Of a DNA stretch of 64,000 bases, positions 4,122 to 47,788 are shown one piece after another. Location: assembly GCA_041641295.1 (NCBI GenBank), contig JBEPYO010000001.1:544001-608000 (forward strand), read 5' to 3'. This DNA is from Nitrososphaerota archaeon. Its GTDB lineage: Archaea; Thermoproteota; Nitrososphaeria_A; Caldarchaeales; Calditenuaceae. How positions within the stretch are numbered: the first letter of the stretch is position 1; each line of letters begins with the position of its first letter. A program made the position numbers and the translations under genes. The notes beneath the pieces were generated by a model. It did no database searches, was not told the origin of the DNA, and saw only the letters and a list, made by a program, of their open reading frames with translations.

Positions 4122-5051
4122 ATGCCATACAAGTCTCTGGCTGAGGCAATTGCTAAGCTGGAGGCTGAGAGACGCCCTTACGCTGTAGCTACTGTCGTCC
4201 GGGTTTCCGGCTCAAGTCTAGGGAAGCCCGGGTTTAAAATGGTTGTTGACGATCGGGGAGAGATCGTCTATGGGACTCTGGGGGGAGTCTGTCCGGAAGG
4301 CCCCATCATCTCTATAGCGCTAGAGTGTATAAGGGAGGAGGAGCCCAGGTTGGTTAAAGTGCATCTCGAGAGCACGGAGGAGGCGGTAAAGGGCATGGCC
4401 ACATCGGGGAGCAGGGATGAGATATTTGTCGAGACCTTCTGCGGCGGTACTATGGAGATTTTCGTAGACCCCATCACACCGGCGAGGCGCCTATTCATCA
4501 TAGGACAGGGAGGGAAGGACGACGTGGAGGAAGCCTTGGTAAGGTTTGGGAAGATCCTTGGCTTTGAGGTCTGGGTCATAGACCCTATGCCTATGCTGGA
4601 GGCTGAGCCTGACAAGTTGATATCGGATATAGACTTCGACCTCTCCAAGCTCGATATAGGGCCCCGGGACTGTGTCGTGGTCTTGACTAAGGGAGAGAGG
4701 GATGTTAAGGTTCTTGAAGCCATCTCGGATAAGACACCCATCTACTTGGGGCTTATGGCCAGTAGGAAGAGGGCTCTGCGGAACCTAGAGCTTCTCAGAG
4801 AGAGGGGAGTGCCTGAAGAGTTCATAGCAAGGATAAGCACGCCCGCGGGTATCGATATAGGCGCGAAGATGCCGGCGGAGATTGCTCTATCAATAATGGC
4901 CGAGGCCGTGGCTAGAATCAGGGGCGTACCTGTGGCTAGGAAGGCCGAGACCGCAGCCCAGCCCCAAACAACCCAAGAGGCTAGGACATCAATATCTCTA
5001 AGAGGGCTGTCCTGCGACGTCCCCGCCGCCACCCTCAAGGACAAGGGATAA
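4122..5051 (+). CDS. XdhC/CoxI family molybdoenzyme maturation protein
   Basis: AVATVVRVSGS, GTLGGVCPE, CGGTMEIFVDP, YLGLMASRKR, PAGIDIGAKMPAEIALSIMAE; ATG at 4122 preferred as start. Confidence 0.9.
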   Translation: MPYKSLAEAIAKLEAERRPYAVATVVRVSGSSLGKPGFKMVVDDRGEIVYGTLGGVCPEGPIISIALECIREEEPRLVKVHLESTEEAVKGMATSGSRDEIFVETFCGGTMEIFVDPITPARRLFIIGQGGKDDVEEALVRFGKILGFEVWVIDPMPMLEAEPDKLISDIDFDLSKLDIGPRDCVVVLTKGERDVKVLEAISDKTPIYLGLMASRKRALRNLELLRERGVPEEFIARISTPAGIDIGAKMPAEIALSIMAEAVARIRGVPVARKAETAAQPQTTQEARTSISLRGLSCDVPAATLKDKG

Positions 5052-5077
5052 ACCCTCCCCCAACCATCCTATTAGTT

Positions 5078-5385
5078 GGGGGCGAGCGGCTGGGCGGGCC
5101 ACGGGGCACTCCCGAGGAAGTTCCTCCCCCCCAACCGGTGCAGTCAGCCACCGCGAGGTGGGCGGGGAGACCCGCGGCAACGCCACAGAAACGAGACCCC
5201 TCCACCGCAGATGAGTATGACCCGCCAACCCGAGGCGGCGACAAGTGGTGGAGAATGGATGAAACGGGCGACCCTGACGGGGAAAGGCGCGCCGGGCCAA
5301 TGAGACGCGCCGGCGAGGCCCGCGTGGAGCCGAGAAGACCAATCCCGCCTAAAACAGAAGGAGGACTATGGGCCGCACGCCCCCT
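5078..5385 (+). ncRNA. rnpB: Archaeal RNase P RNA
   Basis: P4 signatures GAGGAAGTTCCTCC (~5113) and AAAACAGAAGGAGGACTA (~5351); CCACAGAAAC; terminal helix GGGGGCGAGCGGC/GCCGCACGCCCCC; GC-rich intergenic position. Confidence 0.93.
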
Positions 5386-5610
5386 TTGGACAGTAAGCCT
5401 TTCCGCAAGCTTGAAACCAGCTTCTCGCCTGTTTAGAGAGTTTTCTGCACGGTCGCTAGGCTCAGGTCCATGAGGAGATGATAGTGGGATCACATATGCT
5501 AAGAGGTGATATTGTCTAACAGTCCACGAAGGATGTTATTGCTCCATTGGTTTTGGCTGATTGCTGTGAGATAAGTCTTATAGGGGACTTGGGGCGCTTT
5601 ATGGCCGCGC

Positions 5611-8355: not shown

Positions 8356-9618
8356 TTGCTGAGATTTATTTTGACGCTTGAGGTCTGGTTGGCGGTCTTG
8401 GAGGCGAGGCTCCGGTCTGCCCGGCTCATACTCATACCGGGTGTGGCGTTGGCGACGGTTAGCGGCGTTCTGGGGGCTGTTGTGGGCGCGGTTTGGCTTC
8501 TCTCGCTTTCGAGCGCCCTACCCTTCACACCCCTAGTCTTGTCCCACCCCAAACTCATGCTCTTCGGATTCGTCTACGTGTTCATCGCCTCCGTGGCTAT
8601 GGTCCTTGTCCAGCGCTTCAGGAATGAGGAGCACACGAGCTACCTCCGCCTCAGAGCCGCTTCACCGATAGCTATAGCTTTAGGCGTGTTGCTCTCAGCC
8701 TTTGCTGAGCCGGGCACTGTTGTCTGGCTCCTCAGCTACGCGGCCTCAGTGGCCGGCGCTTCCTCTGCGGCATTTTACTCTGTGAGGGTGCTGGGTAGGC
8801 CGTCGGGCCCCCTGGCTGCAGCCGACCCACTAATATCGTCCTCGATGATTCTTATGCCTCTCTCCCTAGCCCTAACCATGTTCGCGGAGCTCGATGGTGG
8901 CCACGTCTTCGGCAGGCCCGGTCTGCCGTTGCTACTCCTCCTTGGGACGCCTGCTGGGATGGTGATGGGTGTTGGGATAAAGACGGTCCACTTCCGGGTG
9001 GATATTAGGTTGAGGAGGAGGGCTTGGTGGCTTCTCACGCCCCTTCATGTCGCATCTTCCGCCGCGGCTTCTGCCGCTGTGCCGCTCCGAAGTGAGGCTC
9101 TGGAGCTGGCCGCATCCCTGGGATACCTACTGGCATCCGTTGTCTGGGTGGTTTCTGTCGACGCCCTCAGACGGGTCAAGTCGGGTGAGCAGTATGCTAG
9201 GATGAGGGAGAGGGACAGGGTCAGGTACCTCTACTTCTCGGCGCTCTATAGGGCTGCCTCAATCTGGCTCCTAGCAGGGTGTGTCTTGGCGGCGGTGGGC
9301 TCGGCCAGCCTGCTGCTGGCCCATCCATTCTGGTATGTCCTCAGAGACGCATACATACACTCCTTAGCCGTCGGGTTTGTAGGCAACATGATCCTCGCAT
9401 ACGCGCCAATCCTGATGCCCGGCCTCATGTCGGCGAGAATGCCCTACACTGGTCTCACACTCTATCCTGCAGCCCTTCTCAACTCTGGCAACGTGCTGAG
9501 GATTGCATGGTTTCTAGCAGGGTCGCCGGGCGTGCCACTAGCAACGATAGCGGCCTCGGCCCTCTACCTGAGCAGCATAGTAATGACGCTCCATATGATG
9601 CATAGCCTGGGCGAATAG
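8356..9618 (+). CDS. NnrS-like polytopic membrane protein
   Basis: HPKLMLFGF and DAYIHSLAVGFVGNMIL resemble NnrS His motifs; converges on a NOR-like operon. Confidence 0.6.
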   Translation: MLRFILTLEVWLAVLEARLRSARLILIPGVALATVSGVLGAVVGAVWLLSLSSALPFTPLVLSHPKLMLFGFVYVFIASVAMVLVQRFRNEEHTSYLRLRAASPIAIALGVLLSAFAEPGTVVWLLSYAASVAGASSAAFYSVRVLGRPSGPLAAADPLISSSMILMPLSLALTMFAELDGGHVFGRPGLPLLLLLGTPAGMVMGVGIKTVHFRVDIRLRRRAWWLLTPLHVASSAAASAAVPLRSEALELAASLGYLLASVVWVVSVDALRRVKSGEQYARMRERDRVRYLYFSALYRAASIWLLAGCVLAAVGSASLLLAHPFWYVLRDAYIHSLAVGFVGNMILAYAPILMPGLMSARMPYTGLTLYPAALLNSGNVLRIAWFLAGSPGVPLATIAASALYLSSIVMTLHMMHSLGE

Positions 9619-9625: not shown

Positions 9626-11122
9626 TTAGACCGTATCACTTATGTAGTGATGTGGCTTACTCAGGGACTTGAAGAGCTGGGCTAGGAATATGGCCTGAGC
9701 CGCTGCGAGGAGTACCCCGAAGCCTACAAGGCCCAATACACCAGTATCGCTGGGTATTGGGAGTGGGTATGCTCTTCTGGGTGTTCCCGCACCTCCCATG
9801 AAGGCCATGAAGTAGAATAGGCCTAGCGCCGCCACAGCCGTCAATATTATGTGGATGTATGCCAGCTTCTTGTTCACTTCTGTTCCAAAGAGGAGCCTGT
9901 AGCTGTGGTAGAGGGCGCCTATCCAGATCAGGGATACTGCGAGGAGTATTGTCATTAAGTGGGCGGTTACCGCATAGGTTCCGTGGAGCCTGTAGGCCCA
10001 GCCAATTGTCCCCAGCTGCATCGCGAGGAAGCCATCGACTATGTAGACGGCAAAACCGAGCATGGCCGCTAGGGAGGCCGGAGTGAGCCTCAGACCAAAG
10101 GCATACGCAGTTGCAAGGACGTTAAAGACGGAAAAGGCCGCCCCAAAGCCTGTCAACCAGCTGGCTATCTGGCCCGTGTAGCTAAGCCCTGCCGGCTGTG
10201 ACGTGGGCATGGTGAAGAGGTGGTGTGGAAAAGCTATTACCGCCGCGGTTGAGTAGAAAACTATTGCGAAGATTCCCAGCTTCTCACTGTAGAGCCTCGG
10301 CTCCACAACTTCAGAGCTTCTCAATACCGCGGTATACCGCGGGATTAGCCAATAGACAGTCCCTATCGCCATTATACCCATCGCCTCCATCAAGTTGTGA
10401 GCCCAGATCCAGAAGGGATAGTTGAAGTTTAGGGGGTGTAAGACCCAGCCCGCCGAGCTTAGGGGGATTGCGCCGAGGAGCGCGAGTCCTATTGTTACTG
10501 CTCCAATGGCGATTGCGGTGCCGAGTGGGGGGATGATGAATATGTAGGGGAGCATACCCGCCATACCCGCGGGATTGAGGGTTCCCACGAACCGCTCTAG
10601 CACGAAGGCTTCCTGGGTCTTTCCACCGAACATTAGTCTCGCGAGCGACGCAGGATATAATGTAATGATAACGGCAAGGACTAGGATTATGCCCCAAACA
10701 AATATAGTGAGGCCCTCGAGGGACCAGAGCCCCTTCAATGCACCTGAAGCGGGAAGAGGGAACATTAACGTATAGCTTGTCCTTACTCCGAAGACGAATA
10801 TTGCTGCGAGTATTAGAAGAAGCCCAACGTTAAGGGTGAAGTATGAAGCTTTCACGAGAGGCCCCTTTACAGATTTACCGTAGCAGAATCCTACCCTCAG
10901 TAGGGATAGGCCCATCATGAGCTGGAAAAGTCCTCCGAAAGGCATCACAACTCCGTGGAATGTGAGGAGCATGTTGTAGTCCGCTATTCTTAGAGCGCCT
11001 GTTAGATGAGCGAGCACCATTGCAAGTCCTGCGGCTCCACCAGCGAAGAACCAGGCAATCGAGGAGAGAATCATCAGTCTCGGATAATATGTCAGGTCCT
11101 CAAGCCTGATTTGCGAGGCCAT
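9626..11122 (-). CDS. Heme-copper oxidase superfamily subunit I, nitric oxide reductase type (nNOR-like)
   Basis: TFHGVVM, WAHNLME (Glu at the Tyr position), FPHHLF, TAHLM (Met at the second His), TPRRAY; start MASQIRL at 11122. Confidence 0.85.
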   Translation of the reverse strand: MASQIRLEDLTYYPRLMILSSIAWFFAGGAAGLAMVLAHLTGALRIADYNMLLTFHGVVMPFGGLFQLMMGLSLLRVGFCYGKSVKGPLVKASYFTLNVGLLLILAAIFVFGVRTSYTLMFPLPASGALKGLWSLEGLTIFVWGIILVLAVIITLYPASLARLMFGGKTQEAFVLERFVGTLNPAGMAGMLPYIFIIPPLGTAIAIGAVTIGLALLGAIPLSSAGWVLHPLNFNYPFWIWAHNLMEAMGIMAIGTVYWLIPRYTAVLRSSEVVEPRLYSEKLGIFAIVFYSTAAVIAFPHHLFTMPTSQPAGLSYTGQIASWLTGFGAAFSVFNVLATAYAFGLRLTPASLAAMLGFAVYIVDGFLAMQLGTIGWAYRLHGTYAVTAHLMTILLAVSLIWIGALYHSYRLLFGTEVNKKLAYIHIILTAVAALGLFYFMAFMGGAGTPRRAYPLPIPSDTGVLGLVGFGVLLAAAQAIFLAQLFKSLSKPHHYISDTV

Positions 11123-11123
11123 C

Positions 11124-11678
11124 TTAACCCACCACCTTGAACTTTGATAGCATCGCCGAGTGCCCGTCCCCGCAGAACTCCAAGCACCTGATGACATACT
11201 CGCCCGGCTCCACTAGATTTAGGACCAGTTCCTCCCTCATGCCAGGCAACAGCATCACAGTAGCTAGTATCTCCCCGCGCGGCGAGTAAATTGTTAGACT
11301 GTGGATGGTGTCATGTGCCCTCGCCACAAACTTCACAGTCCCGGCCTTGACCTCGTAGGTGTCGATCGTGTAACCCCACATGAAGGCTTCAACGTTTACG
11401 GCCTGCACGGGCTCTGAGGGTGTCTGACCCGGTGTGGCTGCTAGTGGCTGGAGCCATGGAATCCAAGGTATGCTGACCAAGTTAATCACTGCCCAAGCTA
11501 TGCCAACCCCCATCAGCCAAGCTACCTCCATCCCCCGAGCTGCCTTCTCGCCCAGAACCGCACCAGACAAGCTCCTACCCCTCCTGAAGGCGAGGAGCAG
11601 TAATAGTGTGAAGATGACTAGGAATGGCGCTGTTAGGTAGAGCAGGAGGAGTATTGCACCCCATCCCGTGCCCAGCAT
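11124..11678 (-). CDS. CuA-containing subunit II of the heme-copper enzyme
   Basis: Two TM helices, then cupredoxin domain with DTIHSL and CLEFCGDGHSAM CuA ligands. Confidence 0.92.
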   Translation of the reverse strand: MLGTGWGAILLLLYLTAPFLVIFTLLLLLAFRRGRSLSGAVLGEKAARGMEVAWLMGVGIAWAVINLVSIPWIPWLQPLAATPGQTPSEPVQAVNVEAFMWGYTIDTYEVKAGTVKFVARAHDTIHSLTIYSPRGEILATVMLLPGMREELVLNLVEPGEYVIRCLEFCGDGHSAMLSKFKVVG

Positions 11679-11819
11679 TACAGGACAGCCTGTTGAGGGG
11701 CCATTATATTAGTATTATCTTAGTTCTCGTCAATAGCCATCTTAGTCTGGACATATTAAAGGTTTGGACGAAATAGAGCAAGCCCCCATAAATGTGTAAA
11801 TGCTGCCTACGCCATATGG

Positions 11820-20636: not shown

Positions 20637-20828
20637 GTGAGTACAGGCCAGCGAGTCCTATACCAATGCGTAAAGTGTGGGAAAGTCTTCGAGAGGGAGC
20701 GGGTCTTCAAGGGGACAGGCATTAGATGCCCCTTCTGCGGCTTCCCAGTCCTGAGGAAGGCTAAGCCAGAGACCGCCAAACTGATAAAAACATCTAAACT
20801 ATCTGAGGAGCAGAAACTCTTCTTCTAG
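20637..20828 (+). CDS. rpoP: DNA-directed RNA polymerase subunit P (Rpo12)
   Basis: YQCVKCG...IRCPFCGFPVLRK. Confidence 0.85.
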   Translation: MSTGQRVLYQCVKCGKVFERERVFKGTGIRCPFCGFPVLRKAKPETAKLIKTSKLSEEQKLFF

Positions 20829-21340
20829 AGCTTGGAATAGATCTTGTCCCACTCTTCCTCGTCCTCAACCTCATCCTCGAGGAGTTCCTCAAAGAGCTCG
20901 TGAGTAACATAGTCCGTGTCCCTATACTTCCTGACCATCTCGTTGTAGAACTTGATGGCGCAGGCCTCACTCTTCAAAACGTCTTCGACCAGTTGCTTGA
21001 TGTTGGTGGGGTCTTTGGGTGGAGGTATGTATCCGCAGCCAGAGGTTGCGAGGAGCTTCGCGAAGTCTAGAACCGGCTCGCCTCCTAGCTGGATTATCCT
21101 CTGAGCCAGCTTCTCGGCATGCTTCAGCTCGTCTTCAGACTGTTTGAGGAGAATAGGCCTCAGCGTATCCGCGTCAATCCCCCTGATCCACTGGGCGGCA
21201 ACCCAGTACTGGTAATGCGCCAGCCACTCATCGGCATAGGCCTTCAGCAGGTCTGACAAGACCTCGTTAATATCTGCCTTAACTATAGAACGACCTGTCT
21301 TACCCAACACCGATACACCAACTAAATCACCCCACCCCAA
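20825..21340 (-). CDS. DPS-like ferritin-superfamily protein (DpsL)
   Basis: AYADEWLAHYQY, EDELKHA, RIIQLGG, conserved Cys pair (SGC, EACAI), EDEVEDE. Confidence 0.88.
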   Translation of the reverse strand: MGWGDLVGVSVLGKTGRSIVKADINEVLSDLLKAYADEWLAHYQYWVAAQWIRGIDADTLRPILLKQSEDELKHAEKLAQRIIQLGGEPVLDFAKLLATSGCGYIPPPKDPTNIKQLVEDVLKSEACAIKFYNEMVRKYRDTDYVTHELFEELLEDEVEDEEEWDKIYSKL

Positions 21341-21641: not shown

Positions 21642-22775
21642 TTAGATTTCCGGCAGGTCAGCTAGGAAACGCTTGTTCAATGCATAGTAGGCCGTTGTCA
21701 TGAAGCCTACGATGAATATTATCAGGACTCCTAGGACTGCGATGACTAGCATGTATGGTATCTCTATGTAGAGGTTTGAGAAGACGAGTGGAGGTAATCC
21801 TTTATCTCCGAGCAATACGAGGTAGGGAAATCGTCCGGCGTCGTTGATGTATTCGCCGAGTATCACCACCAGAATTGCTAGTGGTCCGAGGCCGAGGGCG
21901 AGTCGTGTGACCTCACCAAGTCCCCGCTTGACTCTCCTCCAGATGACAAGAGACAATGCTGCTAGTGACGCTATGACCACCAGTTTACCGGTGAACATTG
22001 GTAGAAGGTTATATGTAGCTTGCACCCCTCCGAGGATGTTATTGTAGAGTAAGGGGGCTTTCTCGCTGAGGGATAATAGGTACCAGAGTCCGAGGATAGG
22101 CTGTAGTGCGAGGAATAGAACTCCGTGCCAAAGGCCAATCCACAGGAATTTCGGCGAGGTGTTACCCCTGATAGCGAAGAACGATGCAGTTATGAATCCT
22201 CCAACAGACATGGCCCCAGCCACCGTGTGGAGTATTAGGGGCGGGTAGATCGGGTTGAGGAAAACTTGGAGCCGCGCCAAGTCTCGTGAACCCTCTAGCG
22301 CCGCAGCGATTCCATACGGAGATGTTATTTCGGCGAAGATGTATCTGAAGCCCATGGGAACCGCGAAGCCTGAAACCGCCATTATGAACCCAATAACTAC
22401 GTGAATACTGGGCTTGACTTTGCCCCATGTATACCAGAACAGGGCTATGCTAGGTATCCGGATTATTATCGCAGAGAGTGCGATGAGGATTGGGTAGAAG
22501 AGAGTGTCTGTGGCGATGGCTAGGAGGGTTGGGAATAGCCCTGCAAGGATGACGGTAATGATTGTCCCCCATACACCGCTGAAAAGTTCATGCACGATAA
22601 GGATTTTGAATACACGTCTCGCCATGATTTCGAGTGAGGGGTCACTTCGACGCCACGCCAGATAACGGGCCATCGCAGATATCCAGCCCGTGCCTATTGT
22701 AATGTTGACGAAGGCTATGTGAACGAGTGTAGCCAATCCTAGGAGATTAAAGCTGAAAAGCTCTGACGTGTTCAC
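21642..22775 (-). CDS. Cytochrome bd second subunit of CydA' type (CydA paralog, not CydB)
   Basis: Keeps CydA-like LVHIAFVNITIG, ILHTVAGA and DAGRFPY; no Q-loop; 4-nt overlap with cydA. Confidence 0.78.
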   Translation of the reverse strand: MNTSELFSFNLLGLATLVHIAFVNITIGTGWISAMARYLAWRRSDPSLEIMARRVFKILIVHELFSGVWGTIITVILAGLFPTLLAIATDTLFYPILIALSAIIIRIPSIALFWYTWGKVKPSIHVVIGFIMAVSGFAVPMGFRYIFAEITSPYGIAAALEGSRDLARLQVFLNPIYPPLILHTVAGAMSVGGFITASFFAIRGNTSPKFLWIGLWHGVLFLALQPILGLWYLLSLSEKAPLLYNNILGGVQATYNLLPMFTGKLVVIASLAALSLVIWRRVKRGLGEVTRLALGLGPLAILVVILGEYINDAGRFPYLVLLGDKGLPPLVFSNLYIEIPYMLVIAVLGVLIIFIVGFMTTAYYALNKRFLADLPEI

Positions 22776-24346
22776 TCCTCAACACCCGCCCCTCTTCTCA
22801 GTAGTTTAACAAATTCGAGCGGCTTAACTGCGACGAGGTACATCCCATAGAGGCCACCCAAGGCCATGGCTGCGAAAAGAAGCGTAAAAGCAATGATAAC
22901 AGGGGTGGAAAAAGATACCGGCGTTACAAGCTCTTCAGGATATAGGAGCCCGTAGACCGTCCACGGCTTTCTGCCAACCTCGCGAACATACCACCCAAGG
23001 GCCGAGGCTAGAATAGAACCCAGCAGAGTCAGCAGGGCTAAAAGGAATAACAGGTTCTTCCCACCCAAGCGCTTCTCTATAATTCGTACAACACTAGAAA
23101 TAAGCCCCAAGTTGTGGACGGAGCCAGATAGTGCCACAACCGAGACGAGAGCTATGACGCCTGCGGCTATTTTTGTGTAGTACGCCGCGTGTATTGTAGG
23201 TAGCCGTTTCTCAGCCTTGGAGAGGTCTTGGAGGCAGAGGTCTGAGAGCCTGATGCTTCCGGAGGGGCCTGGTCTATAATCTGGAACAACTTCGTAGGCT
23301 ATATCCGCAATAGTCTCGTCCCCGTGCTTTCCGCATGCTCGCCGGAGCTCATCAAATCCTTGAATCGGTCTAGACGGGTCTCCATAGGCGAGGAAGGCTA
23401 GTAAGGGGTTTTGGATGGTTGTTTCGGCTCCCTCCATCATGGCAAACTTAGTGGGCATGAAGGCTGCGACGGCTTTCCCCATGTTGTCACCGAAGACGAT
23501 CGGCTGTATAATGAGTAGTACTAGCAGAATGGGTAGGAAAGACTTGAGGAGTTTTACGTATTTCTGGTCCCCTGTCCTGAAGTGTTTGTACGAAAATGCG
23601 GCGGCTGCTAGTGCTATGCCAATGATGACGGCTGCTGTTACGTTGTGGAGCACGCTCGCTAGAGCATATGGGGACGAGAGGGCGATATATGGGTCGCTTA
23701 GCGATAGGCCGACTGCCTTGGCTATCTCAGGGTTCTGCAGTATCTGTGACGCTGTGCCAACTGTGAGGAGGCTATCAACTAGGGCTAGCTTGACAGTTAC
23801 AAGAACGGGTATTTGGAATGCGGCTGGACCGTATTCAGGGAGGAAGGGGTAGAGGACGGAGGCCAGCGGACCAGTCCCCCACGGTACGTTCAGCCAGCTG
23901 TTAACCATTGTTATCAGCATCCCGGAAAAGGCTGCAAAGACGAAATACCCAGCCATTAAGCCGATGCTGACCCACATCCTCACCCATCTCAGGGTCACGA
24001 TAAAGGCTATGAGGAAAACGATTTCTCCGATGAAGGCAGCCAACTCTAGTACTAGGGGTGTAAAGGCTACGGTTGATATTGCATAGATGGAGCCAGGCCA
24101 TGCCTGAACAAGCCCAAACTCAACCAGTGTGCCTGTTATGGCCCCGAGGGCGAAGTTGACGGCTAAAACACCTGTCGCAATCCGCGCAGCCACATAGTAG
24201 TCATTATCCTTAGTCCTAGCCCATTTGTATAGAAACGCTGAAATGACGAAGGGAAAACCCAGCGTCACGGATACGAAGACCGCGTGTAGATAGATTCCTA
24301 GGATGCTTACGGGCATCAGAGCAGAAACGTTATCATAGGCTGCCAC
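22772..24346 (-). CDS. cydA: Cytochrome bd quinol oxidase subunit I
   Basis: YLHAVFV, GTLVEFG, LHNVTAA, Q-loop PTKFAMMEG, GWYVREVGRKPW. Confidence 0.92.
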   Translation of the reverse strand: MAAYDNVSALMPVSILGIYLHAVFVSVTLGFPFVISAFLYKWARTKDNDYYVAARIATGVLAVNFALGAITGTLVEFGLVQAWPGSIYAISTVAFTPLVLELAAFIGEIVFLIAFIVTLRWVRMWVSIGLMAGYFVFAAFSGMLITMVNSWLNVPWGTGPLASVLYPFLPEYGPAAFQIPVLVTVKLALVDSLLTVGTASQILQNPEIAKAVGLSLSDPYIALSSPYALASVLHNVTAAVIIGIALAAAAFSYKHFRTGDQKYVKLLKSFLPILLVLLIIQPIVFGDNMGKAVAAFMPTKFAMMEGAETTIQNPLLAFLAYGDPSRPIQGFDELRRACGKHGDETIADIAYEVVPDYRPGPSGSIRLSDLCLQDLSKAEKRLPTIHAAYYTKIAAGVIALVSVVALSGSVHNLGLISSVVRIIEKRLGGKNLLFLLALLTLLGSILASALGWYVREVGRKPWTVYGLLYPEELVTPVSFSTPVIIAFTLLFAAMALGGLYGMYLVAVKPLEFVKLLRRGAGVEE

Positions 24347-24862: not shown

Positions 24863-24998
24863 GGTGCTTCGGCTCTAAAGATAGGTACTCACATATATAC
24901 CGTAGGCACAGGCTATCCCGGCGCCCCCGCGCCTCTTTTGTAGCAGGCGAGTAGTGTGGAAAAATAGAAATTATGCGTCGCAGAGGAGGGGGGGCGGT

Positions 24999-25472
24999 AT
25001 GCCTGTCAAAGTTGGGGACAAGGCTCCGGATTTCTCGCTGCCCGACCAAGACAGGAATCTGAGGAGGCTATCCGACTATCGCGGCAAAAAGGTTGTATTG
25101 GTCTTCTTCCCAGGCGCCTTCACCTCTGTATGCACGAAGGAGATGTGCACCTTCCGGGACAGCCTCTCCCAGTTCTCAAAGCTGAACGCAGAGGTCATCG
25201 GAATAAGTGTTAACGACCCCGTCACGCTGAAGGCCTTTGCTGAGCATAACAAGCTCGGCTTCACGCTGCTCTCGGACTATTCGAGGGAAGTTGCCAAGAA
25301 ATATGCAGGGCTCTATGAGGATTTCCTCGGGTTGAAGGGATACTCGGTGGCTAAGAGATCAGTCTTCATAATCGATAGGGATGGTGTCGTGAGGTATGCT
25401 TGGATTTCTGAGGACGCTGGTAAGGAGCCGGACTACAGGGAGGTAGCGGCGGCTCTCGAGAAGATTAGCTGA
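24999..25472 (+). CDS. Peroxiredoxin (BCP/PrxQ type)
   Basis: [33 protein letters not shown]; ATG at 24999. Confidence 0.92.
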
Positions 25473-37796: not shown

Positions 37797-38837
37797 ATGA
37801 GGGTGCTTGTTACGGGAGGGGCAGGGTTTATCGGTTCACACATAGTAGAACACTATGCGGCTAATGGGTTCGAAGTTGTTGTATTGGATAACTTTGCACG
37901 GAGCAAATTACTTGGGAAGGGTGCAGAGTGGTCGAGGTATAACTGGGATTACCTTAGGTCTAGGTTCCAAAATGTCGAATTGGTGGAAGCTGATATCAGG
38001 GACTATAAACAGGTGGTGGATGCGGCGGCGGGGACAGATCTCATAGTCCATGCAGCTGCGCAGGTTGCAGTTACTACGTCACTAAACGATCCTCTGACAG
38101 ACTTCATGATAAATGCTCAAGGGACAATTAATGTTCTCGAAGCTGCGAGGAGACATGACTCGGCCATAATCTTTCTATCCACTAACAAGGTCTACGGCGA
38201 CAGGGTGAATGAGATCCCACTAAAAGACGAAGGGACAAGATACTGGTATGACCAGCGCGAATATCTCCAAGGAATACCTGAAGACTTTCCCATTGACGGA
38301 AGCACTCATACCCCCTACGGCTGCTCAAAACTTGCAGCCGACATATATGTGCAGGACTATGGCAGGGTATACGGCCTCAAGTCCGCGGTATTTAGGATGA
38401 GCTGTATCTATGGAGAGAGACAGTTCGGGGTTGAAGACCAAGGCTGGCTAGCCCATTTTGCCAGGCTTATAATTTATCGAGAGCCTATAACCATCTACGG
38501 GGACGGTAAACAGGTAAGAGATGTACTCTATGTTGGGGACCTTGTGAGAGCTATTGATAGGGCCTATACGCTCGCGTCCAAGCTCACAGGCGAGGTATTC
38601 AATATTGGCGGCGGCCCGGAAAACTCATTATCACTGCTTGAGGCTATAGACTATATTTCTGGTCTGGAGGGATTCCGACCACAACTCTACTTTAAAGAAT
38701 GGAGGCCTGCCGATCAGAAAGTGTATGTCAGCGATATACGGAAAGCCATGAAGATGCTTGACTGGAGACCGGAGGTTGGATGGAGAGAAGGTATTAAGAG
38801 AATGCATAAATGGATGAGTAACATGATGAGGAGATGA
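37797..38837 (+). CDS. NAD-dependent nucleotide-sugar epimerase, CDP-paratose 2-epimerase-like
   Basis: GGAGFIG, AAQVAVTTS, STNKVYG, PYGCSK, RQFGVEDQGW. Confidence 0.85.
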   Translation: MRVLVTGGAGFIGSHIVEHYAANGFEVVVLDNFARSKLLGKGAEWSRYNWDYLRSRFQNVELVEADIRDYKQVVDAAAGTDLIVHAAAQVAVTTSLNDPLTDFMINAQGTINVLEAARRHDSAIIFLSTNKVYGDRVNEIPLKDEGTRYWYDQREYLQGIPEDFPIDGSTHTPYGCSKLAADIYVQDYGRVYGLKSAVFRMSCIYGERQFGVEDQGWLAHFARLIIYREPITIYGDGKQVRDVLYVGDLVRAIDRAYTLASKLTGEVFNIGGGPENSLSLLEAIDYISGLEGFRPQLYFKEWRPADQKVYVSDIRKAMKMLDWRPEVGWREGIKRMHKWMSNMMRR

Positions 38838-39895
38838 GCGACAAACACCTGCTTATAGACATCTTCCCATCCCCTCACCCACTATGGAGTACTATTCTAG
38901 AGAAACCGCCCGAGGGAGTTAGATACTTAATCCGTAGAGGCCTGAGTGGGAGAGCCTACCTCGCATTTAGCTCCCTAATCGGAGACCGCAAATTGATACA
39001 CTTCTGTAACGGCATAAAGCTAGCCCCGCGTAGAAGATGGGTGGCAGACATGGAATCCGTCAAGGTCTTGTTCAAGGACTATAGATCTATGTTCAACAAC
39101 GACGCACGGAATGATGCACAGAATAGGATAGAGACGGGCGAGTGCAGATATATCCTCCCACTAACAGAGGCGGCGAAAAAGACCCTCACACGATTCTTAC
39201 GGCTTAAAGGCTTCCAGGTCAGGGTATTGTATCCCACATTCTACACCAATTTGAAGCCAAAGCATGAGGGGCCTCGGGATTTAATCCTATTCATAGGGGG
39301 CTCCTATTTTGATAAGTCATTCGAGGCTAAGGGGGGGAGAGAAGTGTCTATTGCTTGGATGAACATTCATAGAGATTTTAAAAATTACAAGTTTTTCATG
39401 CTCTCCACACCCCCTCCCAGTTTGGCGGAGAAGTTGAGGGGTATGGGTGTTGAGATAGGACCCATGCCACGTGAGAAGCTCCTGACCGAGTTGTATCCAC
39501 GGGCGCGAGTAATATTACTTCCATCCATGATGGATACTGTTGGTTATAGTGTGATAGAGGCAATGAATTTCGGTATCCCTCCTATCGTCAGCGACCATTT
39601 CGCTATGCCGGAACTGGTCGGCGATGCTGGCATCATTCTGCGAACCCCTACAGGCCTCTGGCTAAACGACGGGACCCCAAACATATCTTTTCACCAACAG
39701 CTAGACAACGGTCCATTTAGCGAGCTTTCTGAGCGAATAGCTGACGCTCTACATAGACTACTAAGCGATGATGGTGAGTGGGTAAAGCTTTCAGAAAGAG
39801 CGCTGGCTAGAATGAACAATCCTCCATTCCACATATCCTATAGAAATAAAGTCCTCCACGAAGTATATGAGGATGCTTCGTCAGAGAACGCCTAG
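38834..39895 (+). CDS. Glycosyltransferase family 4
   Basis: LLPSMMDTVGYSVIEAMNFGIPPIVS GT-B motif. Confidence 0.85.
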   Translation: MSDKHLLIDIFPSPHPLWSTILEKPPEGVRYLIRRGLSGRAYLAFSSLIGDRKLIHFCNGIKLAPRRRWVADMESVKVLFKDYRSMFNNDARNDAQNRIETGECRYILPLTEAAKKTLTRFLRLKGFQVRVLYPTFYTNLKPKHEGPRDLILFIGGSYFDKSFEAKGGREVSIAWMNIHRDFKNYKFFMLSTPPPSLAEKLRGMGVEIGPMPREKLLTELYPRARVILLPSMMDTVGYSVIEAMNFGIPPIVSDHFAMPELVGDAGIILRTPTGLWLNDGTPNISFHQQLDNGPFSELSERIADALHRLLSDDGEWVKLSERALARMNNPPFHISYRNKVLHEVYEDASSENA

Positions 39896-41362
39896 CCTTC
39901 TCATTATACTCTTCGCCATTTCCCGGAATTCCTTGTCGAGACAGTAGAGTGAGACAAAATATATTGTTGCACTCACTCCAACGGGGATAAGTGTCTGGGG
40001 AAGGGCTTGAAGGATCTCAGCTGGGAGATGTGATGGGCGCATAACTAGCAGAGCTAAAGCCATCAAGGATGATGCTATTAAGTATCTTGCGATGGAGTGG
40101 AGTGGTAAGTTGAACTTCAAATTATGTCTAGCTATTCTCAACTTATAGACTGTCAGAGCTACCGTCAAAAAGGCGCTCACGAAGACCCACAGGAATAGAG
40201 TCTCCAGAACAGTGGTAGGAGATGCGATGTAAAGTACTGTGACGAGCACAGTTATATAGAGAGCTGAGTAGAAGTAGTTTATCGTAGGGAGTAGAAAGAG
40301 CCTGCTCTTTATAAGTCTCCTCATAGTGACACCTTCTTCAAAATCTGCTCGCTCCTCTCCAATAATGACGGAATCAAATATATTATTCATGATAAAGAAA
40401 ATGGATTGGACTAGGACTAGCGGCATGATGGCCGCTGCACTAACGTAATCTGGCCTCAAGAGATTTAGGAGGTTCTGAGAGAGTATTAGTGCGCCTATGG
40501 AGGAAGGGATGGCCAACATCAAAACGAGCTTGAGAGATACCTCAACATCCTTCTCTGAAGGAACTTGTAGCATCTTGGGGTAGAGGCCGGAGGCCAAATA
40601 GCCAGATGCTGTTACCATGCTTGCGATTAGATAGACGGCTGAAAAGTATCCAAGAGGTTCTGCTGACCCGTAGAGAAGTACTATGATGATGGTGTCTAAA
40701 GCTAAGATGTTTGGAGGGATGGATGAGTAGAGTGGGAGCCATGCTCTGGAGAAGATTTTTATAGCATAGGATTTATCCGGTGACCCCCATTTTATGTCTC
40801 TTAGGAATAATGCCATCGCCGCGCATCGGCTGGTGAATCCCATCACTGCCGCAAGTATTGCGCCCGTGAGCCCGAGCCTTAGAACTATGACTAACATGAC
40901 TCCTATAGGTAATTTTACGACCTCTTGTATTATGCTTGCATAGTAGTTCATGTGTGGTCTTATTGCCGTTCCTGCTGATTCTAAGACTGTGTAGAGGTAG
41001 ATTGTGGGTATCTCGAGGGCTGCTATTATGAAGACTGTTGTGGGGAAATCTACAGAGCTTGCAAATGTGTTTGAGAATGTGATGAAGAGTAGTGTGGCAA
41101 GGATGGAGAGGAGGGCAGCCATTGCTGTTGTTGTTCCGAGGATGGTTTTTCCTTGGGCAATCATTCTCGTTGTCCAGAACCCTATGAAGGCTGAGGGTGT
41201 TACGAAATAGTTTATTAGGGTACCGATGTATCGCCAAACTCCCAGCTCTTCCGGAGTTAGGCGGCGGGTTATAACTAGTGTGAAGGCGAGGCCAGTGAGC
41301 ATTGTGACTAGATATGCCGTATATGCTGTTAGGCCTGTGTATCTGAGTCTGATGCTGGCCAC
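39881..41362 (-). CDS. Wzx/MOP-like oligosaccharide flippase
   Basis: About 12-14 TM; TRRLTPEELGVW; located within a glycosyltransferase cluster. Confidence 0.78.
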   Translation of the reverse strand: MASIRLRYTGLTAYTAYLVTMLTGLAFTLVITRRLTPEELGVWRYIGTLINYFVTPSAFIGFWTTRMIAQGKTILGTTTAMAALLSILATLLFITFSNTFASSVDFPTTVFIIAALEIPTIYLYTVLESAGTAIRPHMNYYASIIQEVVKLPIGVMLVIVLRLGLTGAILAAVMGFTSRCAAMALFLRDIKWGSPDKSYAIKIFSRAWLPLYSSIPPNILALDTIIIVLLYGSAEPLGYFSAVYLIASMVTASGYLASGLYPKMLQVPSEKDVEVSLKLVLMLAIPSSIGALILSQNLLNLLRPDYVSAAAIMPLVLVQSIFFIMNNIFDSVIIGEERADFEEGVTMRRLIKSRLFLLPTINYFYSALYITVLVTVLYIASPTTVLETLFLWVFVSAFLTVALTVYKLRIARHNLKFNLPLHSIARYLIASSLMALALLVMRPSHLPAEILQALPQTLIPVGVSATIYFVSLYCLDKEFREMAKSIMRRLGVL

Positions 41363-41441
41363 CTCTCACTCCCCGTTAATTTTCATGTAACAATCAAGTT
41401 GATGAGGGTCCTAATTAACCAGAGAGACGGATGATATATCC

Positions 41442-42608
41442 CTATTGATCTATTAGGGGGGCTACTGCTTTGGCGTATTTGGGTATTAGCTTCTGCCAAT
41501 CATAGTATTGTTCGACAATGCGTCTTGCTCTTTGGGCCTTGGTCTCAGCGTCTTCTTTTTCATTTAAGGCTCTGAGTATTTCTAGTGCGAACTCTTCAGG
41601 ATCACGGCGCCTTGCGATAAATGCAGAGTCTGGGTCGAGAACATTAAGCCTTGCAGGTGTGGCAACCATGACTATGGGGCGTTGGGCCGCCATGTATTCA
41701 AACAACTTTTGCTGTTCAGCATAGTACGTGCCGAGGATATCACCAATTGGCAGGACTAGGGCATTACTCGCCTTGAAAAGGCTCATCCTTACAGGCTCAT
41801 AGGGGGCCATGGGCGGGAGAAGAATGGTGTGATTTTCTAATCCGCGTTTTCTCACTTGTACTTCCACCCATTTCCACATTGGTGTGCTTGGCGCGGCCGC
41901 CCCTTGAATTATTAGTTTAAAGCTACTGGTGCTTTTTGCCAATGCCTGTACAGAATCTAGTAACAGTTCAAGACCCTGGCCCTCCCGCCGACCCCATAAA
42001 TACGCTGCGCCACTGTATGTTATTATTCTATTCTCCTTAAGTCCGTATAGTGACCTGAAAAGCTGAGGGTCGGCCCCCATATAGTGCTTGTCGAATTGTT
42101 GCAGTTCTATGCCGAATGGTACGTAGGTTGCTCTTTTTAATAGTTTGGGGTGGTTTTTCTCGGCTAGTGTTTTTATGGCTCTGCTTGCGAATATGACGAG
42201 ATCTGCGAGTTCTATCATTCTTTGATCATAGAATGGGATTGAGCCGTCGTCTTGAATGGTGACGTCTTGACAGTCTATAATTAGTGGGACCTTCTCGCGG
42301 AATAGGGCTTTGAGGGCGAGGACTCCTATGGTATTCATGTTGATGCAGAGGGCAGCGTGGTTTTTTGGTAATGTAGTGTATATGGCGGCGTCGTATACGG
42401 TGTCTTTGCACAACCAGTTTATTGGTGGTGGCAGTAGGTTTGATAGGGATGTGGCGGCTTTCAGAGTCTTATATTTGTTGACTAGATCCCAGCCCAGGTA
42501 TATTTTTGTTTTGACCCCTAGGAGTTTTAGGGCTTGGGAGGCGAGGAGCGGTCTTCTGTATCTGAGTGGTGGGAAGGATGTTAGGTATATTGCGTGTTTA
42601 TCACTCAT
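41442..42608 (-). CDS. Glycosyltransferase family 4
   Basis: KLFEYMAAQRPIV; start MSDKH at 42608 overlaps the epimerase stop. Confidence 0.85.
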   Translation of the reverse strand: MSDKHAIYLTSFPPLRYRRPLLASQALKLLGVKTKIYLGWDLVNKYKTLKAATSLSNLLPPPINWLCKDTVYDAAIYTTLPKNHAALCINMNTIGVLALKALFREKVPLIIDCQDVTIQDDGSIPFYDQRMIELADLVIFASRAIKTLAEKNHPKLLKRATYVPFGIELQQFDKHYMGADPQLFRSLYGLKENRIITYSGAAYLWGRREGQGLELLLDSVQALAKSTSSFKLIIQGAAAPSTPMWKWVEVQVRKRGLENHTILLPPMAPYEPVRMSLFKASNALVLPIGDILGTYYAEQQKLFEYMAAQRPIVMVATPARLNVLDPDSAFIARRRDPEEFALEILRALNEKEDAETKAQRARRIVEQYYDWQKLIPKYAKAVAPLIDQ

Positions 42609-43543
42609 GGTTGGATTTCTTTTCTGATCCATTCGTATTCTTTTCTTAGTCCTTCGTCTAGTTTTGTCTCGGGTCTCCATCCGAGCTTTTCTTCTGCTTT
42701 CCTGTAGCTTCCTATGAATCTTTGTATGTCTCCTTTTCTGGGTGGGTGGTATTCTACTCCTGCCTTGCTTCCGGTTATTTCTAGTATCTTTTTTGCGAGC
42801 TGGTTTAGTGTTGTTCCTATGCCTGTTGGGAGTAGGAATGTTTCCCCTATTGCTTCTTGGTTCTGGATTGCTAGTAGGTATGCCTTCGCTGTGTCGACTA
42901 CATACGTGTAGTCTCTCACCTGTTCGCCGGTGCCGTATATTGGTAGTGGTTTTCCCTTGATTGCTAGTTCGAACCAGTATGCTATGAAGTTGTACCAGCC
43001 GCCGGCCCAGTATGGCTGTCTTGGGCCGTAGACGTTGCTTGGTCTTAGTATGACGTATTTTAGTCCGTATAGTCCGTTGTATATTTTGCAGAGCATTTCT
43101 CCGTATATTTTGTGGGTGTTGTAGAATGTTGAGGGGTTGTAGGGCCAGTTTTCGTCTGCTATGTGTGGTGGTGGGATGTCTCCGTGGACGCTTCTGCTGC
43201 TGGTGTATATGAGGAGGGCTTTTGTGTTGTTTTTTCTGAGGGATTCCAAGAGTCTGAAGGTTCCTTCGGCGTTTCTTGCGAAGTCTTCTTCGGGGTAGTC
43301 GACTGATTTGAAAGTTGAGACTTGGGCCGCGGCGTGTATGACGACGTCCACATCTTTTACGTCGTTAGCAGAGATGTTTCTGACGTCCTTGACTACTAGT
43401 TCGGCGTCTTCGGGGAGGTTTGTCCGTCTTCCTGCCGATAGGTCGTCGATTACTTTGACAGTGTAGCCGTTTCTCAGCAGTAGTTCCACTATATGGGAGC
43501 CTATGAATCCGGCACCTCCTGTCACAAGTACGTGTTCCTTCAA
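42605..43543 (-). CDS. NAD-dependent nucleotide-sugar epimerase/dehydratase (GalE-like)
   Basis: GGAGFIG, YNTHK, NVYGPRQ, GEQVRDYTYV. Confidence 0.9.
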   Translation of the reverse strand: MKEHVLVTGGAGFIGSHIVELLLRNGYTVKVIDDLSAGRRTNLPEDAELVVKDVRNISANDVKDVDVVIHAAAQVSTFKSVDYPEEDFARNAEGTFRLLESLRKNNTKALLIYTSSRSVHGDIPPPHIADENWPYNPSTFYNTHKIYGEMLCKIYNGLYGLKYVILRPSNVYGPRQPYWAGGWYNFIAYWFELAIKGKPLPIYGTGEQVRDYTYVVDTAKAYLLAIQNQEAIGETFLLPTGIGTTLNQLAKKILEITGSKAGVEYHPPRKGDIQRFIGSYRKAEEKLGWRPETKLDEGLRKEYEWIRKEIQP

Positions 43544-43664
43544 ACTGTCTTCACAATTCTCCCGCCATAGCTATTTTTAAGGATGTTGATGAGGTGAAGG
43601 ATCTAATTCTGCGATGGACGAGTAGGGGTGGTGGCTGGAGTAGGGGTCGGTTTAGCATATTTCC

Positions 43665-44765
43665 TTAGAGCGCCATTTTTCTGAATTCTACAACTTCGTA
43701 GTCTGTTTGGTCTGTTATTGTAACTTTTTCGGAGTTATACCCCCCTCTTATTAGCCAGTAGATGAGTGCTATGCTTAGAGCTAGTGATTTTGCCAGCCTG
43801 AAAGGGAGCGTTAATGGGTAGAGGGTTAGACGTCCAATCCCTACTGCCCTTCGTGAATAAGCTAGGAAACCTCCGGCCAGTAGTGCTAGGAGTGGGTAGT
43901 AGGTTAGTGGGGATAAGAATATGCTTGTGAGTAGGGCGTCCCAGTATAGGATGCTCTTTACAGCGCTGGATGCTATCTTGTTTTTTAAGAAGAGCTTTGC
44001 CTCTGATCGGGCACCGGCAAAGAAATATTTTCTAATCTCTCTTAGTGAGTATCTTCTAAGATGCTTTACTATTACCCTAGAATCAAATAGGCAAGTAAGG
44101 CCTTTCCGCGTGGCCCGTCTCCCCCAGTCTAGGTCTTCAATGAATCTTATATCTTCGTCAAAATATCCAACACTCTTTGCAGTCTCTAGGTTGATAAGAC
44201 ATGCAGCCGTGTTGCATGCCTCTCCTCTACTAACCCGGTGTTTGGGATTTGCACGTCTAGCTTTGAGATACTTTGCATACAGTCGCTCAAGGAAGTCCAG
44301 GTTCTCATAGCCTACGTCCCATACTGTGCTTACACAAACTATGGATGGCTCTTTGCTAATTAGTTCAAGTCCTCTATTGAGGAAGTCTTTATCTATTATT
44401 ATGTCGGAATCTATGAATGCTAAGTATTTGAATTTTAGCTCTTGAGCGGTTTTGAGGGCTATGTTGCGTAGTCTGCTTGGGTTTCCGGCTGCTCTTATGT
44501 GTAGTACGCCTCCGTAGTTTTCGCCGTGTTTTTTTAGCCAGTTTTTGCAGAAGTCAAATGCACCGTCTTTTGAATAGTTGTCGATGAGGCAGAGGAATAT
44601 TCGTTCCTTTGGGTAGTTTAGACTTGATAGTGATTCGAGGGCGCGGGATAGTGTGTCTCCCTTCATACTGTGATAGATCATTGTTACGAATATTGGTAGT
44701 TGTTTTTCCGCTGGAACTGGTTTCTCAGTTTGCATGCCTGTGGGTATTTTTGGGGCTGGACACAT
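43665..44765 (-). CDS. Glycosyltransferase family 2
   Basis: IDNYSKD, FIDSD, EDLDW; C-terminal TM segments. Confidence 0.85.
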   Translation of the reverse strand: MCPAPKIPTGMQTEKPVPAEKQLPIFVTMIYHSMKGDTLSRALESLSSLNYPKERIFLCLIDNYSKDGAFDFCKNWLKKHGENYGGVLHIRAAGNPSRLRNIALKTAQELKFKYLAFIDSDIIIDKDFLNRGLELISKEPSIVCVSTVWDVGYENLDFLERLYAKYLKARRANPKHRVSRGEACNTAACLINLETAKSVGYFDEDIRFIEDLDWGRRATRKGLTCLFDSRVIVKHLRRYSLREIRKYFFAGARSEAKLFLKNKIASSAVKSILYWDALLTSIFLSPLTYYPLLALLAGGFLAYSRRAVGIGRLTLYPLTLPFRLAKSLALSIALIYWLIRGGYNSEKVTITDQTDYEVVEFRKMAL

Positions 44766-44813
44766 AAAAATCTAAGCTTATGCGGCTTTATAGCTTGTCA
44801 TGGATTATACGTT

Positions 44814-45443
44814 CTAATGGTTGAATATGCTTCTGGTGAGCCATCGGCGGTATAGCAGCCATTCCAGTATCCACTTTAGCCTCCTAGCTAGCTCTAGTGG
44901 GTTCTTTCTCAGTATTAGTCGGTGGATGGGGAGCTCTCTATGCTCTAGGTATGCCCAAGTTAGGTGTTTCTGGTTCAGGAGGTATCTAGGGTTAGGATTG
45001 ATGTTAAGGTGCTGTAATTCGAGCGCTTGACAGTCCAGCTCATCAATATTCAGCCCCATCTTTTTCAACCTGATCTTGAGCTCGATGTCCTCGCCCATAT
45101 TCGGTTTGAGCCTCTCATCATAACCGCCCGAGGCGAAGAACGTCACTGCGTTAATCACTAAAATATGGGGTTGAGCATGCCAAATGGCTCGACCTCTGCT
45201 TTTCTTAAATTCGACTAGAAATGTGTAGAGGGCTCGCCAATTCAGACGCGCGTCGTCATCGATGAAGCAGAGAACCTCTCCCCTTGCTACTGCTGCTCCT
45301 ATGTTCCTTGACCTGCTAGCATTGCGCCATCTGTCTCTCACCTCTATTACTTCAACTCCTCGAGACTCTAGTTCCTCCCGTGGCAGATACTGGATTGTCT
45401 TGTTATCCCCCAGTGTGGGTATAATTATCGAGGCCCATACCAC
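44814..45443 (-). CDS. Compact glycosyltransferase family 2
   Basis: SIIIPTL, SRNIGA, FIDDD, GGYDE, GEDIEL. Confidence 0.8.
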   Translation of the reverse strand: MVWASIIIPTLGDNKTIQYLPREELESRGVEVIEVRDRWRNASRSRNIGAAVARGEVLCFIDDDARLNWRALYTFLVEFKKSRGRAIWHAQPHILVINAVTFFASGGYDERLKPNMGEDIELKIRLKKMGLNIDELDCQALELQHLNINPNPRYLLNQKHLTWAYLEHRELPIHRLILRKNPLELARRLKWILEWLLYRRWLTRSIFNH

Positions 45444-45457
45444 TATCTAAAACCACC

Positions 45458-47052: not shown

Positions 47053-47095
47053 AACACCCTTCTAAGGCTGCTGACTCACTGCTGATAAATTAATT

Positions 47096-47735
47096 TTATC
47101 CAAAAATGCTCCTCCTCTTCCATCTAGTGAATAGTATCCATTGAAGAGCCCAAAACCATATCCTAGCTAGCTTTATAGGGTGTTTTCGTAATAAGACACG
47201 TCGAAGCGGAAAAGTTCCATACTCGATATATGTCCAAGTAAAACTCTTATTTGCAGCCAAGTAGTGCCTTCTATCCCACGTATCGCGGAGATGAACCAGC
47301 CTTATATCCAGTAAATTGACACTCACCCCCATGTGCCGCAGCCTCTCCCTAATCTCAACCGCTTCAGCCCCCCTTATAGGATGACGCTCATCATATCCAC
47401 CCACCCTGAAGAATACATCACTCCTGACAATCAAGATATGAGGCGCGTCACTCCAATAACACTCAACACCACAAGCATCACTAACATGAAGAATCCTCTG
47501 CTTAAGCTGCTCAAAATCAAACTCCGCATCATCATCAATGAAACACAATACCGACCCCCTTGAGACGGCTGCCCAAATATTCCTACTTCTACTGGCATTC
47601 CTCATCCCCCACCGGTCATGAACGATAATAAGCTCCACACCCTGCCTCCTCAACTACTCCTCATCAGTCAACGAGTAAAGAGTAGGCGGGATCCTCCACC
47701 AAAGTCGGAATAATAATCGAGCAACAAGGCCTCAT
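47096..47735 (-). pseudogene. Decayed compact GT2, paralog of 44814..45443
   Basis: ATG 47735 gives MRPCCSIIIPTL, then a frameshift near 47690 and an in-frame TAG at 47654-47656 before LRRQGVE...FIDDD...GGYDER. Confidence 0.72.
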
Positions 47736-47788
47736 TTCCCACAACTACCTACACATTACTTTATATAACCCTTCCAAGAGCAGATCAA

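Follow-up and report, generated by a model that had tools for sequence, protein, structure and literature searches.

A predicted nNOR-type nitric oxide reductase encoded by a cox-like gene pair of a Caldarchaeales archaeon

The nitric oxide reductases (NORs) of the cNOR and qNOR types reduce nitric oxide (NO) to nitrous oxide (N2O), with electrons entering via NorC in the former and from quinol in the latter. Four further NOR families are proposed to have arisen from oxygen reductases; nNOR is one of them, and no nNOR has been purified. As described by Murali et al. (2024, PNAS, PMC11214002), nNORs are relatives of the B family, have a CuA subunit, a low-spin heme with His/Met ligation and a conserved proton channel, and reached the active-site residues of cNOR and qNOR by convergence. 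Here, we analyzed a gene pair in a window of 64,000 nucleotides from a Caldarchaeales archaeon (positions 544,001 to 608,000 of contig JBEPYO010000001.1, assembly GCA_041641295.1; all coordinates below are window based). The pair lies on the minus strand and encodes a subunit II of 184 residues (11124..11678), recognized from its open reading frame (ORF) and sequence, and a subunit I of 498 residues (9626..11122, from an ATG at 11122). Judged by its sequence, the pair is a member of the published nNOR family, in a lineage where that family is already on record. We consider it probable that the two genes encode an nNOR, with a CuA-bearing subunit II and a catalytic subunit I, and that NO made by NirK is the substrate reduced to N2O.

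The predicted metal ligands of subunit I are found in four motifs on the minus strand. TFHG in helix II (10952..10963) contains H56, a predicted His ligand of the low-spin heme. Helix VI reads HNLME (10385..10399), with H242 as the first His of the active-site metal and E246 at the position of the cross-linked Tyr, and PHH in helix VII (10220..10228) supplies the second and third His, H300 and H301. The HLM of helix X (9953..9961; AHLM at 9953-9964) provides H388, the predicted proximal ligand of the high-spin heme, and M390, which stands in the column of the second low-spin heme His (HFH, HGH or HAH elsewhere). The low-spin heme is predicted to have His/Met ligation via H56 and M390. HMMER alignments to solved A-family oxidases placed HNLME/HPEVY, AHLM/AHFH, PHH/AHH and TFHG/TAHG in register, and the same motif columns were obtained in a reference alignment with the A-type oxidase of this genome, the Sinorhizobium meliloti cNOR NorB, the Cupriavidus necator qNOR and the S. 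meliloti CcoN. Among these references, the NorB of S. meliloti pSymA was identified as a cNOR by its matches to PDB 4XYD (E 2.3e-199) and 3O0R (E 9.5e-156), the qNOR is a C. necator pHG1 protein annotated as nitric-oxide reductase large subunit, and the CcoN from pSymA passes its NCBIfam cut-off. In the reference alignment, the E246 column holds the Glu of HLWVE in cNOR and qNOR and Tyr in A-type and HPIVY-type enzymes; E246 thus occupies the position of the FeB-ligand Glu of cNOR and qNOR. A preliminary description of this DNA had reported HNLME and HLM at exactly these coordinates, and had taken the Glu that replaces the cross-linked Tyr as a mark of NO reductases, in agreement with the column shared with the HLWVE Glu. 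Its view that TFHG, PHH and a full CuA subunit II are intact was likewise borne out by the alignments to A-family oxidases and to ba3.

All 32 aligned relatives, which reach down to 36% identity, keep H56, H242, L244, M245, E246, H300, H301, H388 and M390 unchanged. This alignment spans archaea and bacteria and has 49 invariant columns in subunit I, including R449/R450 near the C-terminus. Furthermore, the related loci from named genomes (the best 80 of the 136 relatives described below) show HxM in 78 cases, HH in 78 and the CuA motif in 79, the misses being two unparsed loci and one cut locus; in 79 of them, subunit I has a subunit II gene upstream. The Glu motif count of 80/80 is circular because LMEAM was the scan pattern. 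Since the ligand residues are invariant in the 32 relatives and are kept across loci, the motifs are more than chance or a local accident. In A- and B-family oxygen reductases the helix VI Tyr is cross-linked to the first active-site His, whereas C-family enzymes have the Tyr in helix VII. Here helix VII reads HHLFT, with Phe two positions past HH (relatives have F or Y), and thus offers no substitute Tyr at that spot. Within the seven residues before HH, the alignment of relatives contains no invariant Tyr.

Subunit II has two N-terminal membrane helices followed by a cupredoxin domain, in which the CuA site is complete (H...C-x-E-x-C-x3-H-x2-M, read as TIHS...CLEFCGDGHSAM), whose ligands align one for one with those of Thermus ba3 subunit II. 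The Thermus thermophilus ba3 oxidase (PDB 1EHK, 1XME) resembles the window enzyme in its two-subunit core, its CuA subunit II and a similar ligand spacing in subunit I, and it carries the same C-terminal Arg pair. Helix VI of ba3 reads HPIVY, and ba3 differs from the window enzyme in its His-Tyr cofactor, its His/His low-spin heme and its reduction of O2. With cNOR (NorBC; PDB 3O0R, 4XYD) and qNOR (PDB 3AYF; C. necator NorB) the window enzyme shares the three His and the Glu four residues on (HLWVE versus HNLME) and the absence of the cross-linked Tyr; the reduction of NO to N2O that they carry out is the reaction predicted for it. However, the low-spin heme of cNOR and qNOR is His/His ligated (HGH, HAH), whereas His/Met is predicted here; they lack a CuA subunit, and the second Glu of HLWVEGVWE is Ile in the window. 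They also group with the C-family CcoN, so that their kinship to the window enzyme is distant. Further comparisons are eNOR and the gNOR-like enzyme of the same genome, both of which are, like nNOR, Tyr-less and B related, with NO reduction proposed or shown. The eNOR of Rhodothermus marinus reduces NO and not O2, and Dataset S1 gives it Gln at the Tyr position, where the window has Glu (PMC11214002). The gNOR-like protein differs from nNOR in that Asp replaces the first His and its subunit II lacks the CuA cysteines.

The channel residues gave a second point of agreement with the published family. For the nNOR reference sequence, from Aigarchaeota archaeon SCGC AAA471-B22, Dataset S1 of Murali et al. 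lists E242, Y253, Y259, (S/T)324, (N/T)327 and T331. In the window, E246 and five residues on the minus strand between 10109 and 10354, namely, Y257 (10352-10354), Y263 (10334-10336), S331 (10130-10132), N334 (10121-10123) and T338 (10109-10111), match all six positions with the identical spacing (E+11, E+17, then 3 and 4). Y257 and T338 are invariant in the alignment of relatives and Y263 is nearly so, while the alignment blocks read S or T at 331 and N or T at 334, the same alternatives as in Dataset S1. According to the same paper, this conserved proton channel is present in nNOR and absent in cNOR and qNOR.

Scanning one genome per species with the LMEAM pattern gave 224 pattern matches, among which 136 were relatives. 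Among the best 80, Archaeon HR02 appears twice, with 86% and 68% identity to the window subunit I, followed by Calditenuis fumarioli (76%), Calditenuaceae JGI OTU-1 (74%) and, more distantly, Sedimenticola selenatireducens (39%); Thermoflexus, Thermomicrobium, UBA5680 and Rubrivivax are also among the relatives. The named relatives coincide with the nNOR list in Dataset S8 of PMC11214002, which records nNOR in five Caldarchaeales genomes of f__HR02 and in Thermoflexus hugenholtzii, Thermomicrobium roseum, Sedimenticola species, UBA5680, Rubrivivax and others, and the paper also counts two nNORs in Archaeon HR02. The nNOR family is small and isolated: of 1.84 billion representatives searched, only 98 matched at E 0.001 and 7 at 1e-30. 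The window enzyme has in common with the family the HxxxE of helix VI, the HH of helix VII, the HxM of helix X, the CuA subunit II, the Y/Y/S-T/N-T/T channel and the host lineage, Caldarchaeales family HR02. The differences are minor: the window genome has one copy where Archaeon HR02 has two, a cupredoxin gene follows subunit I in the second HR02 copy and in a Caldarchaeum locus but not in the window, and the window pair faces a convergent NnrS-like gene, kept only in the 3 closest of the 80 loci. The preliminary description had proposed that CuA, a His/Met heme and the Glu together describe the rare, B-family-related nNOR group, and every sequence-level feature tried agrees with the definition given in PMC11214002.

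Two maximum-likelihood trees (LG+C20; 29 and 32 rows) were computed from nNOR relatives, the nearest nonfamily matches of the exhaustive representative search and the other two heme-copper enzymes of the genome, the second tree with cNOR, qNOR and two CcoN added; eNOR, bNOR and ba3 are absent from them, and groups other than the named references carry labels based on motif only. All Glu-bearing rows (14, then 13) formed one clade with 100/100 support and a long stem, in which the window subunit I nests among the archaeal members, and the Tyr-bearing groups and an Asn-bearing group formed separate clades. Placement inside an O2-reductase clade with a Tyr supplied from another helix had been named in the preliminary description as evidence against the NOR reading; the protein instead falls in the Glu-bearing clade, and the helix VII residue near HH is Phe. 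The cNOR, qNOR and CcoN sequences lie across a starred branch (97/98) from nNOR, so these small-sample trees reproduce the convergence with cNOR and qNOR claimed in PMC11214002. Membership among the A- or B-family oxygen reductases is contradicted by the helix VI Glu in place of the cross-linked Tyr, and membership in cNOR or qNOR by the Met in the second ligand column, the presence of CuA and the position across the 97/98 branch. Regarding descent, the best solved relatives of subunit II are the Thermus ba3 subunit II and CuA domains (E 4e-7 to 6e-7), with A-family subunit II behind them (E 0.02-0.08). Profile alignment of nNOR with hhalign scored 262.8 against the HPIVY group, 260.9 against the Asn group and 225.8 against A-type enzymes, and the best PDB match of the Asn-type sister group is ba3. 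Indirectly, these comparisons support a descent of nNOR subunit I near the B family.

General profiles and structure comparison place subunit I in the heme-copper fold at large. Pfam COX1 matches it at 1.5e-34, and the best NCBIfam model, CtaD_CoxA, reaches 64.5 bits against a cut-off of 670.75; therefore, the protein is a heme-copper subunit I outside every curated oxidase family. No NCBIfam model labels the window protein, the cNOR reference or the qNOR reference as a NOR. For subunit II, NCBIfam CoxB (2.2e-13) and Pfam COX2 (E 0.0032) both stay under their cut-offs. The AlphaFold2 model of subunit I (predicted local distance difference test score 87.5; predicted template modeling [TM] score 0.91) has the multi-helix subunit I fold, and Foldseek aligned it with A-family subunit I chains at TM 0.74-0.84; since the matches listed are all from the A family, Foldseek has no power to tell the family.

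These COX1 and CoxB-like matches, together with a full CuA site, three active-site His and both heme ligand positions filled, are what a divergent B-type oxidase would also display, one that still uses O2 although it lacks the His-Tyr cofactor, perhaps at a low rate or with peroxide as the product. Gene neighborhoods were annotated for 11 diverse loci of the 80 (128 ORFs), and in the proteobacterial ones (L026, L028, L044, L063 and L067) genes for a Cu P-type ATPase, a DsbD-like protein, SCO1 and a heme O synthase-like protein (UbiA) recur, which hints at a dedicated supply of copper and heme o/a. The UbiA, SCO1 and Cu-ATPase genes are oxidase assembly genes and speak for an O2 reductase, as do the bd-like oxidase, peroxiredoxin and ferritin-like protein within 15 kb in the window. 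Nevertheless, Glu replaces Tyr in 32 of 32 aligned relatives, no conserved Tyr stands by HH, and the clade is apart from all Tyr-bearing groups with 100/100 support. Moreover, the genome encodes two other oxidases, the A-type enzyme with HPEVY and one of bd type, and eNOR, the one characterized Tyr-less relative from the same radiation, is described in PMC11214002 as unable to reduce O2. In light of this, we regard an O2-reducing enzyme as highly unlikely.

The genome (1.56 Mb, 93.8% complete) encodes three heme-copper enzymes: an A-type fusion of subunits I and III with HPEVY and a CuA subunit, the gNOR-like enzyme, and the window nNOR. The preliminary description had suggested a search for nirK/nirS and nosZ, and of these only nirK was found. 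Its product is membrane anchored, has a C-terminal cupredoxin domain and matches the solved three-domain NirK 6HBE at E 7.6e-135. Genome searches found no nirS (cytochrome cd1) and no narG. A full nosZ was not found either, the two NCBIfam NosZ models giving cupredoxin-domain pieces only, with no control genome over their cut-offs; Pfam nos_propeller likewise had no match in any control genome and is uninformative. Across 76 genomes of the order, including this one, 10 have nNOR, 20 have NirK and 17 have the gNOR-like gene, and nNOR is present in three of the seven other genomes of the genus. NirK is present in 6 of 10 nNOR-positive genomes versus 14 of 66 nNOR-negative ones, a mild association only, because the genomes are kin and often incomplete and the counts are not independent.

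On these grounds, the enzyme likely serves to remove or respire NO, whether external or made by NirK, and N2O would be the end product since NirK, nNOR and a gNOR-like enzyme are present and nitrate reductase and N2O reductase were not found. A small copper protein would pass electrons to CuA, from which they would flow through the His/Met low-spin heme to the pair of high-spin heme and non-heme metal (His3-Glu), where two NO would combine into N2O. Without the Tyr, four-electron reduction of O2 would be unlikely. Protons may be drawn from the cytoplasm through the conserved channel, and the reaction could therefore conserve energy and be electrogenic. The potential of a His/Met low-spin heme is expected to be about 150 mV above that of a bis-His heme (PMC11214002). 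A more extended scheme, which we put forward tentatively and consider rather doubtful, would make this an energy-conserving nNOR wired only through copper proteins, with electrons running from quinol to an alternative-complex-III-like module, cupredoxins, CuA, a high-potential His/Met heme and the His3-Glu site while protons enter by the channel. Together with NirK and the gNOR-like enzyme, it would then amount to nitrite respiration to N2O, a hot-spring source of N2O at temperatures of at least 70°C.

Loss of the Tyr alone does not fix the substrate, because an NO dismutase and an N2O reductase have been proposed among other Tyr-less heme-copper families (PMC11214002). The scaffold might thus serve the reduction of N2O, nitrite, peroxide or peroxynitrite, or NO dismutation; the missing nosZ would leave room for the first of these, and the raised potential expected of the His/Met heme could suit a different acceptor. 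Against such a substrate, the active-site residues are those of cNOR and qNOR, which are proven NO reductases, while the proposed dismutase and N2O reductase families have different sites and nosZ is present in many of the nNOR genomes of Dataset S8 (PMC11214002). We judge a substrate other than NO unlikely.

Several observations weigh against the assignment as a NirK-linked NO reductase of B-family ancestry. Reduction or detoxification of NO is a prediction for the whole nNOR family: a whole-word search of the literature from 2022 on returned surveys and no nNOR biochemistry among the matches listed, and the available text of PMC11214002 reports NOR activity for eNOR and bNOR only, with nNOR never purified or assayed. 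Both the Met ligation of the heme and the binding of metal by Glu are read from alignment. By the queries used here, both nNOR and the gNOR-like gene are missing from 13 of the 20 genomes of the order that carry NirK, and 4 of the 10 nNOR-positive genomes, which are 66-88% complete, lack this NirK. No nir or nos gene adjoins nNOR in the 11 annotated loci or in the window, and the Cu-ATPase, SCO1 and heme O synthase-like neighbors fit CuA assembly whether the active-site metal is Fe or Cu. With respect to ancestry, the Asn group is sister to nNOR at 87/91 on a branch that is not starred, and one HPIVY representative scores higher to A-type chains than to ba3. Searched against the PDB at E up to 10, the nNOR profile found the A family only and no ba3, cNOR, qNOR or cbb3, and these four are also absent among the Foldseek matches listed. 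Our own support for B-family descent is indirect because the subunit I profile and Foldseek reach only A-family structures.

The patchy distribution described above (10 of 76 genomes of the order, three of the seven others of the genus) would also be expected of a decaying or silent gene pair without present function. However, neither frame is interrupted and the stop-start junction is tight, the window copy has no stops at 86-90% identity to other species, and 49 columns are invariant across archaea and bacteria, so that decay seems extremely improbable.

The enzyme and its odd ligands have already been published, as have the family name and the occurrence of nNOR in this archaeal family, so the locus represents a known finding and adds no new kind of system. 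Annotation still hides the family. The preliminary description had anticipated that pipelines would apply cox labels, and the relatives are indeed named "cytochrome c oxidase subunit 1," "cbb3-type cytochrome c oxidase subunit I" or "Alternative cytochrome c oxidase subunit 1" in the databases. Likewise, the available part of a 2023 paper on Caldarchaeales metagenome-assembled genomes (MAGs) reports coxA/coxB and states that no NOR was identified for Calditenuis fumarioli, a species in which a contig named Candidatus Calditenuis fumarioli (L018, 5989-7452) encodes the nNOR subunit I 76% identical to that of the window. In a 2026 article about Calditenuaceae in culture (PMC12979851), one author's contribution is given as "nitric oxide reductase screening," and its main text and five of its supplementary files have no entry for nNOR, gNOR or nitric oxide. 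If the predicted function is correct, N2O would be made from NO by organisms that their annotation presents as plain aerobes, this Caldarchaeales archaeon among them, and cox-labeled nNOR genes would be miscounted in nitrogen-cycle surveys. The family would, in addition, serve as a natural experiment on the question why cNOR is not electrogenic, since it pairs an active site of the cNOR type with a proton channel and a predicted His/Met heme.

The start of subunit I required a choice. The program-listed ORF has 523 residues, starts at 11197 and runs into subunit II; this start is probably too long because the identical database protein has 498 residues and the homologues begin at M26, the ATG at 11122. 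That ATG lies one base past the subunit II stop, with GGTGG in front of it, and the longer form is probably not used. A gap of 141 bases separates subunit II from a divergent phosphoribosyltransferase gene. Within 11679..11760 on the minus strand, an AT-rich stretch read from the sequence, aagataatactaatataatgg, lies about 20-45 bases upstream of the subunit II ATG and is likely the putative archaeal promoter of a two-gene operon. A genome of the same genus has a second nNOR copy (G029:C30:4579-6030) with one in-frame TGA and a NirK gene (G029:C12:5734-7290) with one TGA and one TAA inside the match; these stops could be sequencing errors or gene decay.

Archaeal loci differ in what follows subunit I. 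A cupredoxin gene is found directly after it in 2 of the 11 annotated loci, both archaeal, and a hemerythrin gene takes this place in a Pyrobaculum sp. MAG (L029:7472-8011). Beside the qNOR gene of C. necator pHG1 lies the hemerythrin-type ytfE (L098:3728-4338), and nNOR and qNOR may share an accessory function through such neighbors. In the window, the gene convergent to subunit I (8356-9618, plus strand), whose end is 8 bases from that of subunit I, encodes a multi-helix membrane protein of 420 residues with no Pfam match at normal thresholds. Its family has 12 proteins, and those with a source name are listed as hypothetical proteins from archaeal MAGs; some similarity to Pfam NnrS is seen in 6 of 11 members (best E 6e-4, nearly full-length alignment), and a protein-atlas search with the 420-residue protein returned an NnrS cluster third (0.89). 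Bacterial NnrS is associated with NO stress. As a conserved partner of nNOR, this candidate was rejected: tblastn and the family profile place it next to nNOR in 3 of the 80 loci only, and it was therefore excluded from the system.

Three further features of the window were noted. At 21642-24346 on the minus strand, adjacent ORFs of 377 and 524 residues both match cytochrome bd subunit I, and no CydB-type match was seen; the pair may be a CydA-CydA'-type bd relative and is flanked by a ferritin/Dps-like protein and a peroxiredoxin (20825-21340 on the minus strand and 24954-25472 on the plus strand). An archaeal RNase P RNA (Rfam RF00373, 156 bits) occupies 5082-5380 on the plus strand, and the ORFs at 5035-5493, 5138-5473 and 4998-5342 are spurious because they overlie it. 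Finally, the region from about 37800 to 50900 has a low GC content (0.44-0.48 versus about 0.55 elsewhere) and a strong strand skew, and it is probably a surface-glycan island, since its genes encode glycosyltransferases, sugar epimerases/dehydratases and FkbM methyltransferases.

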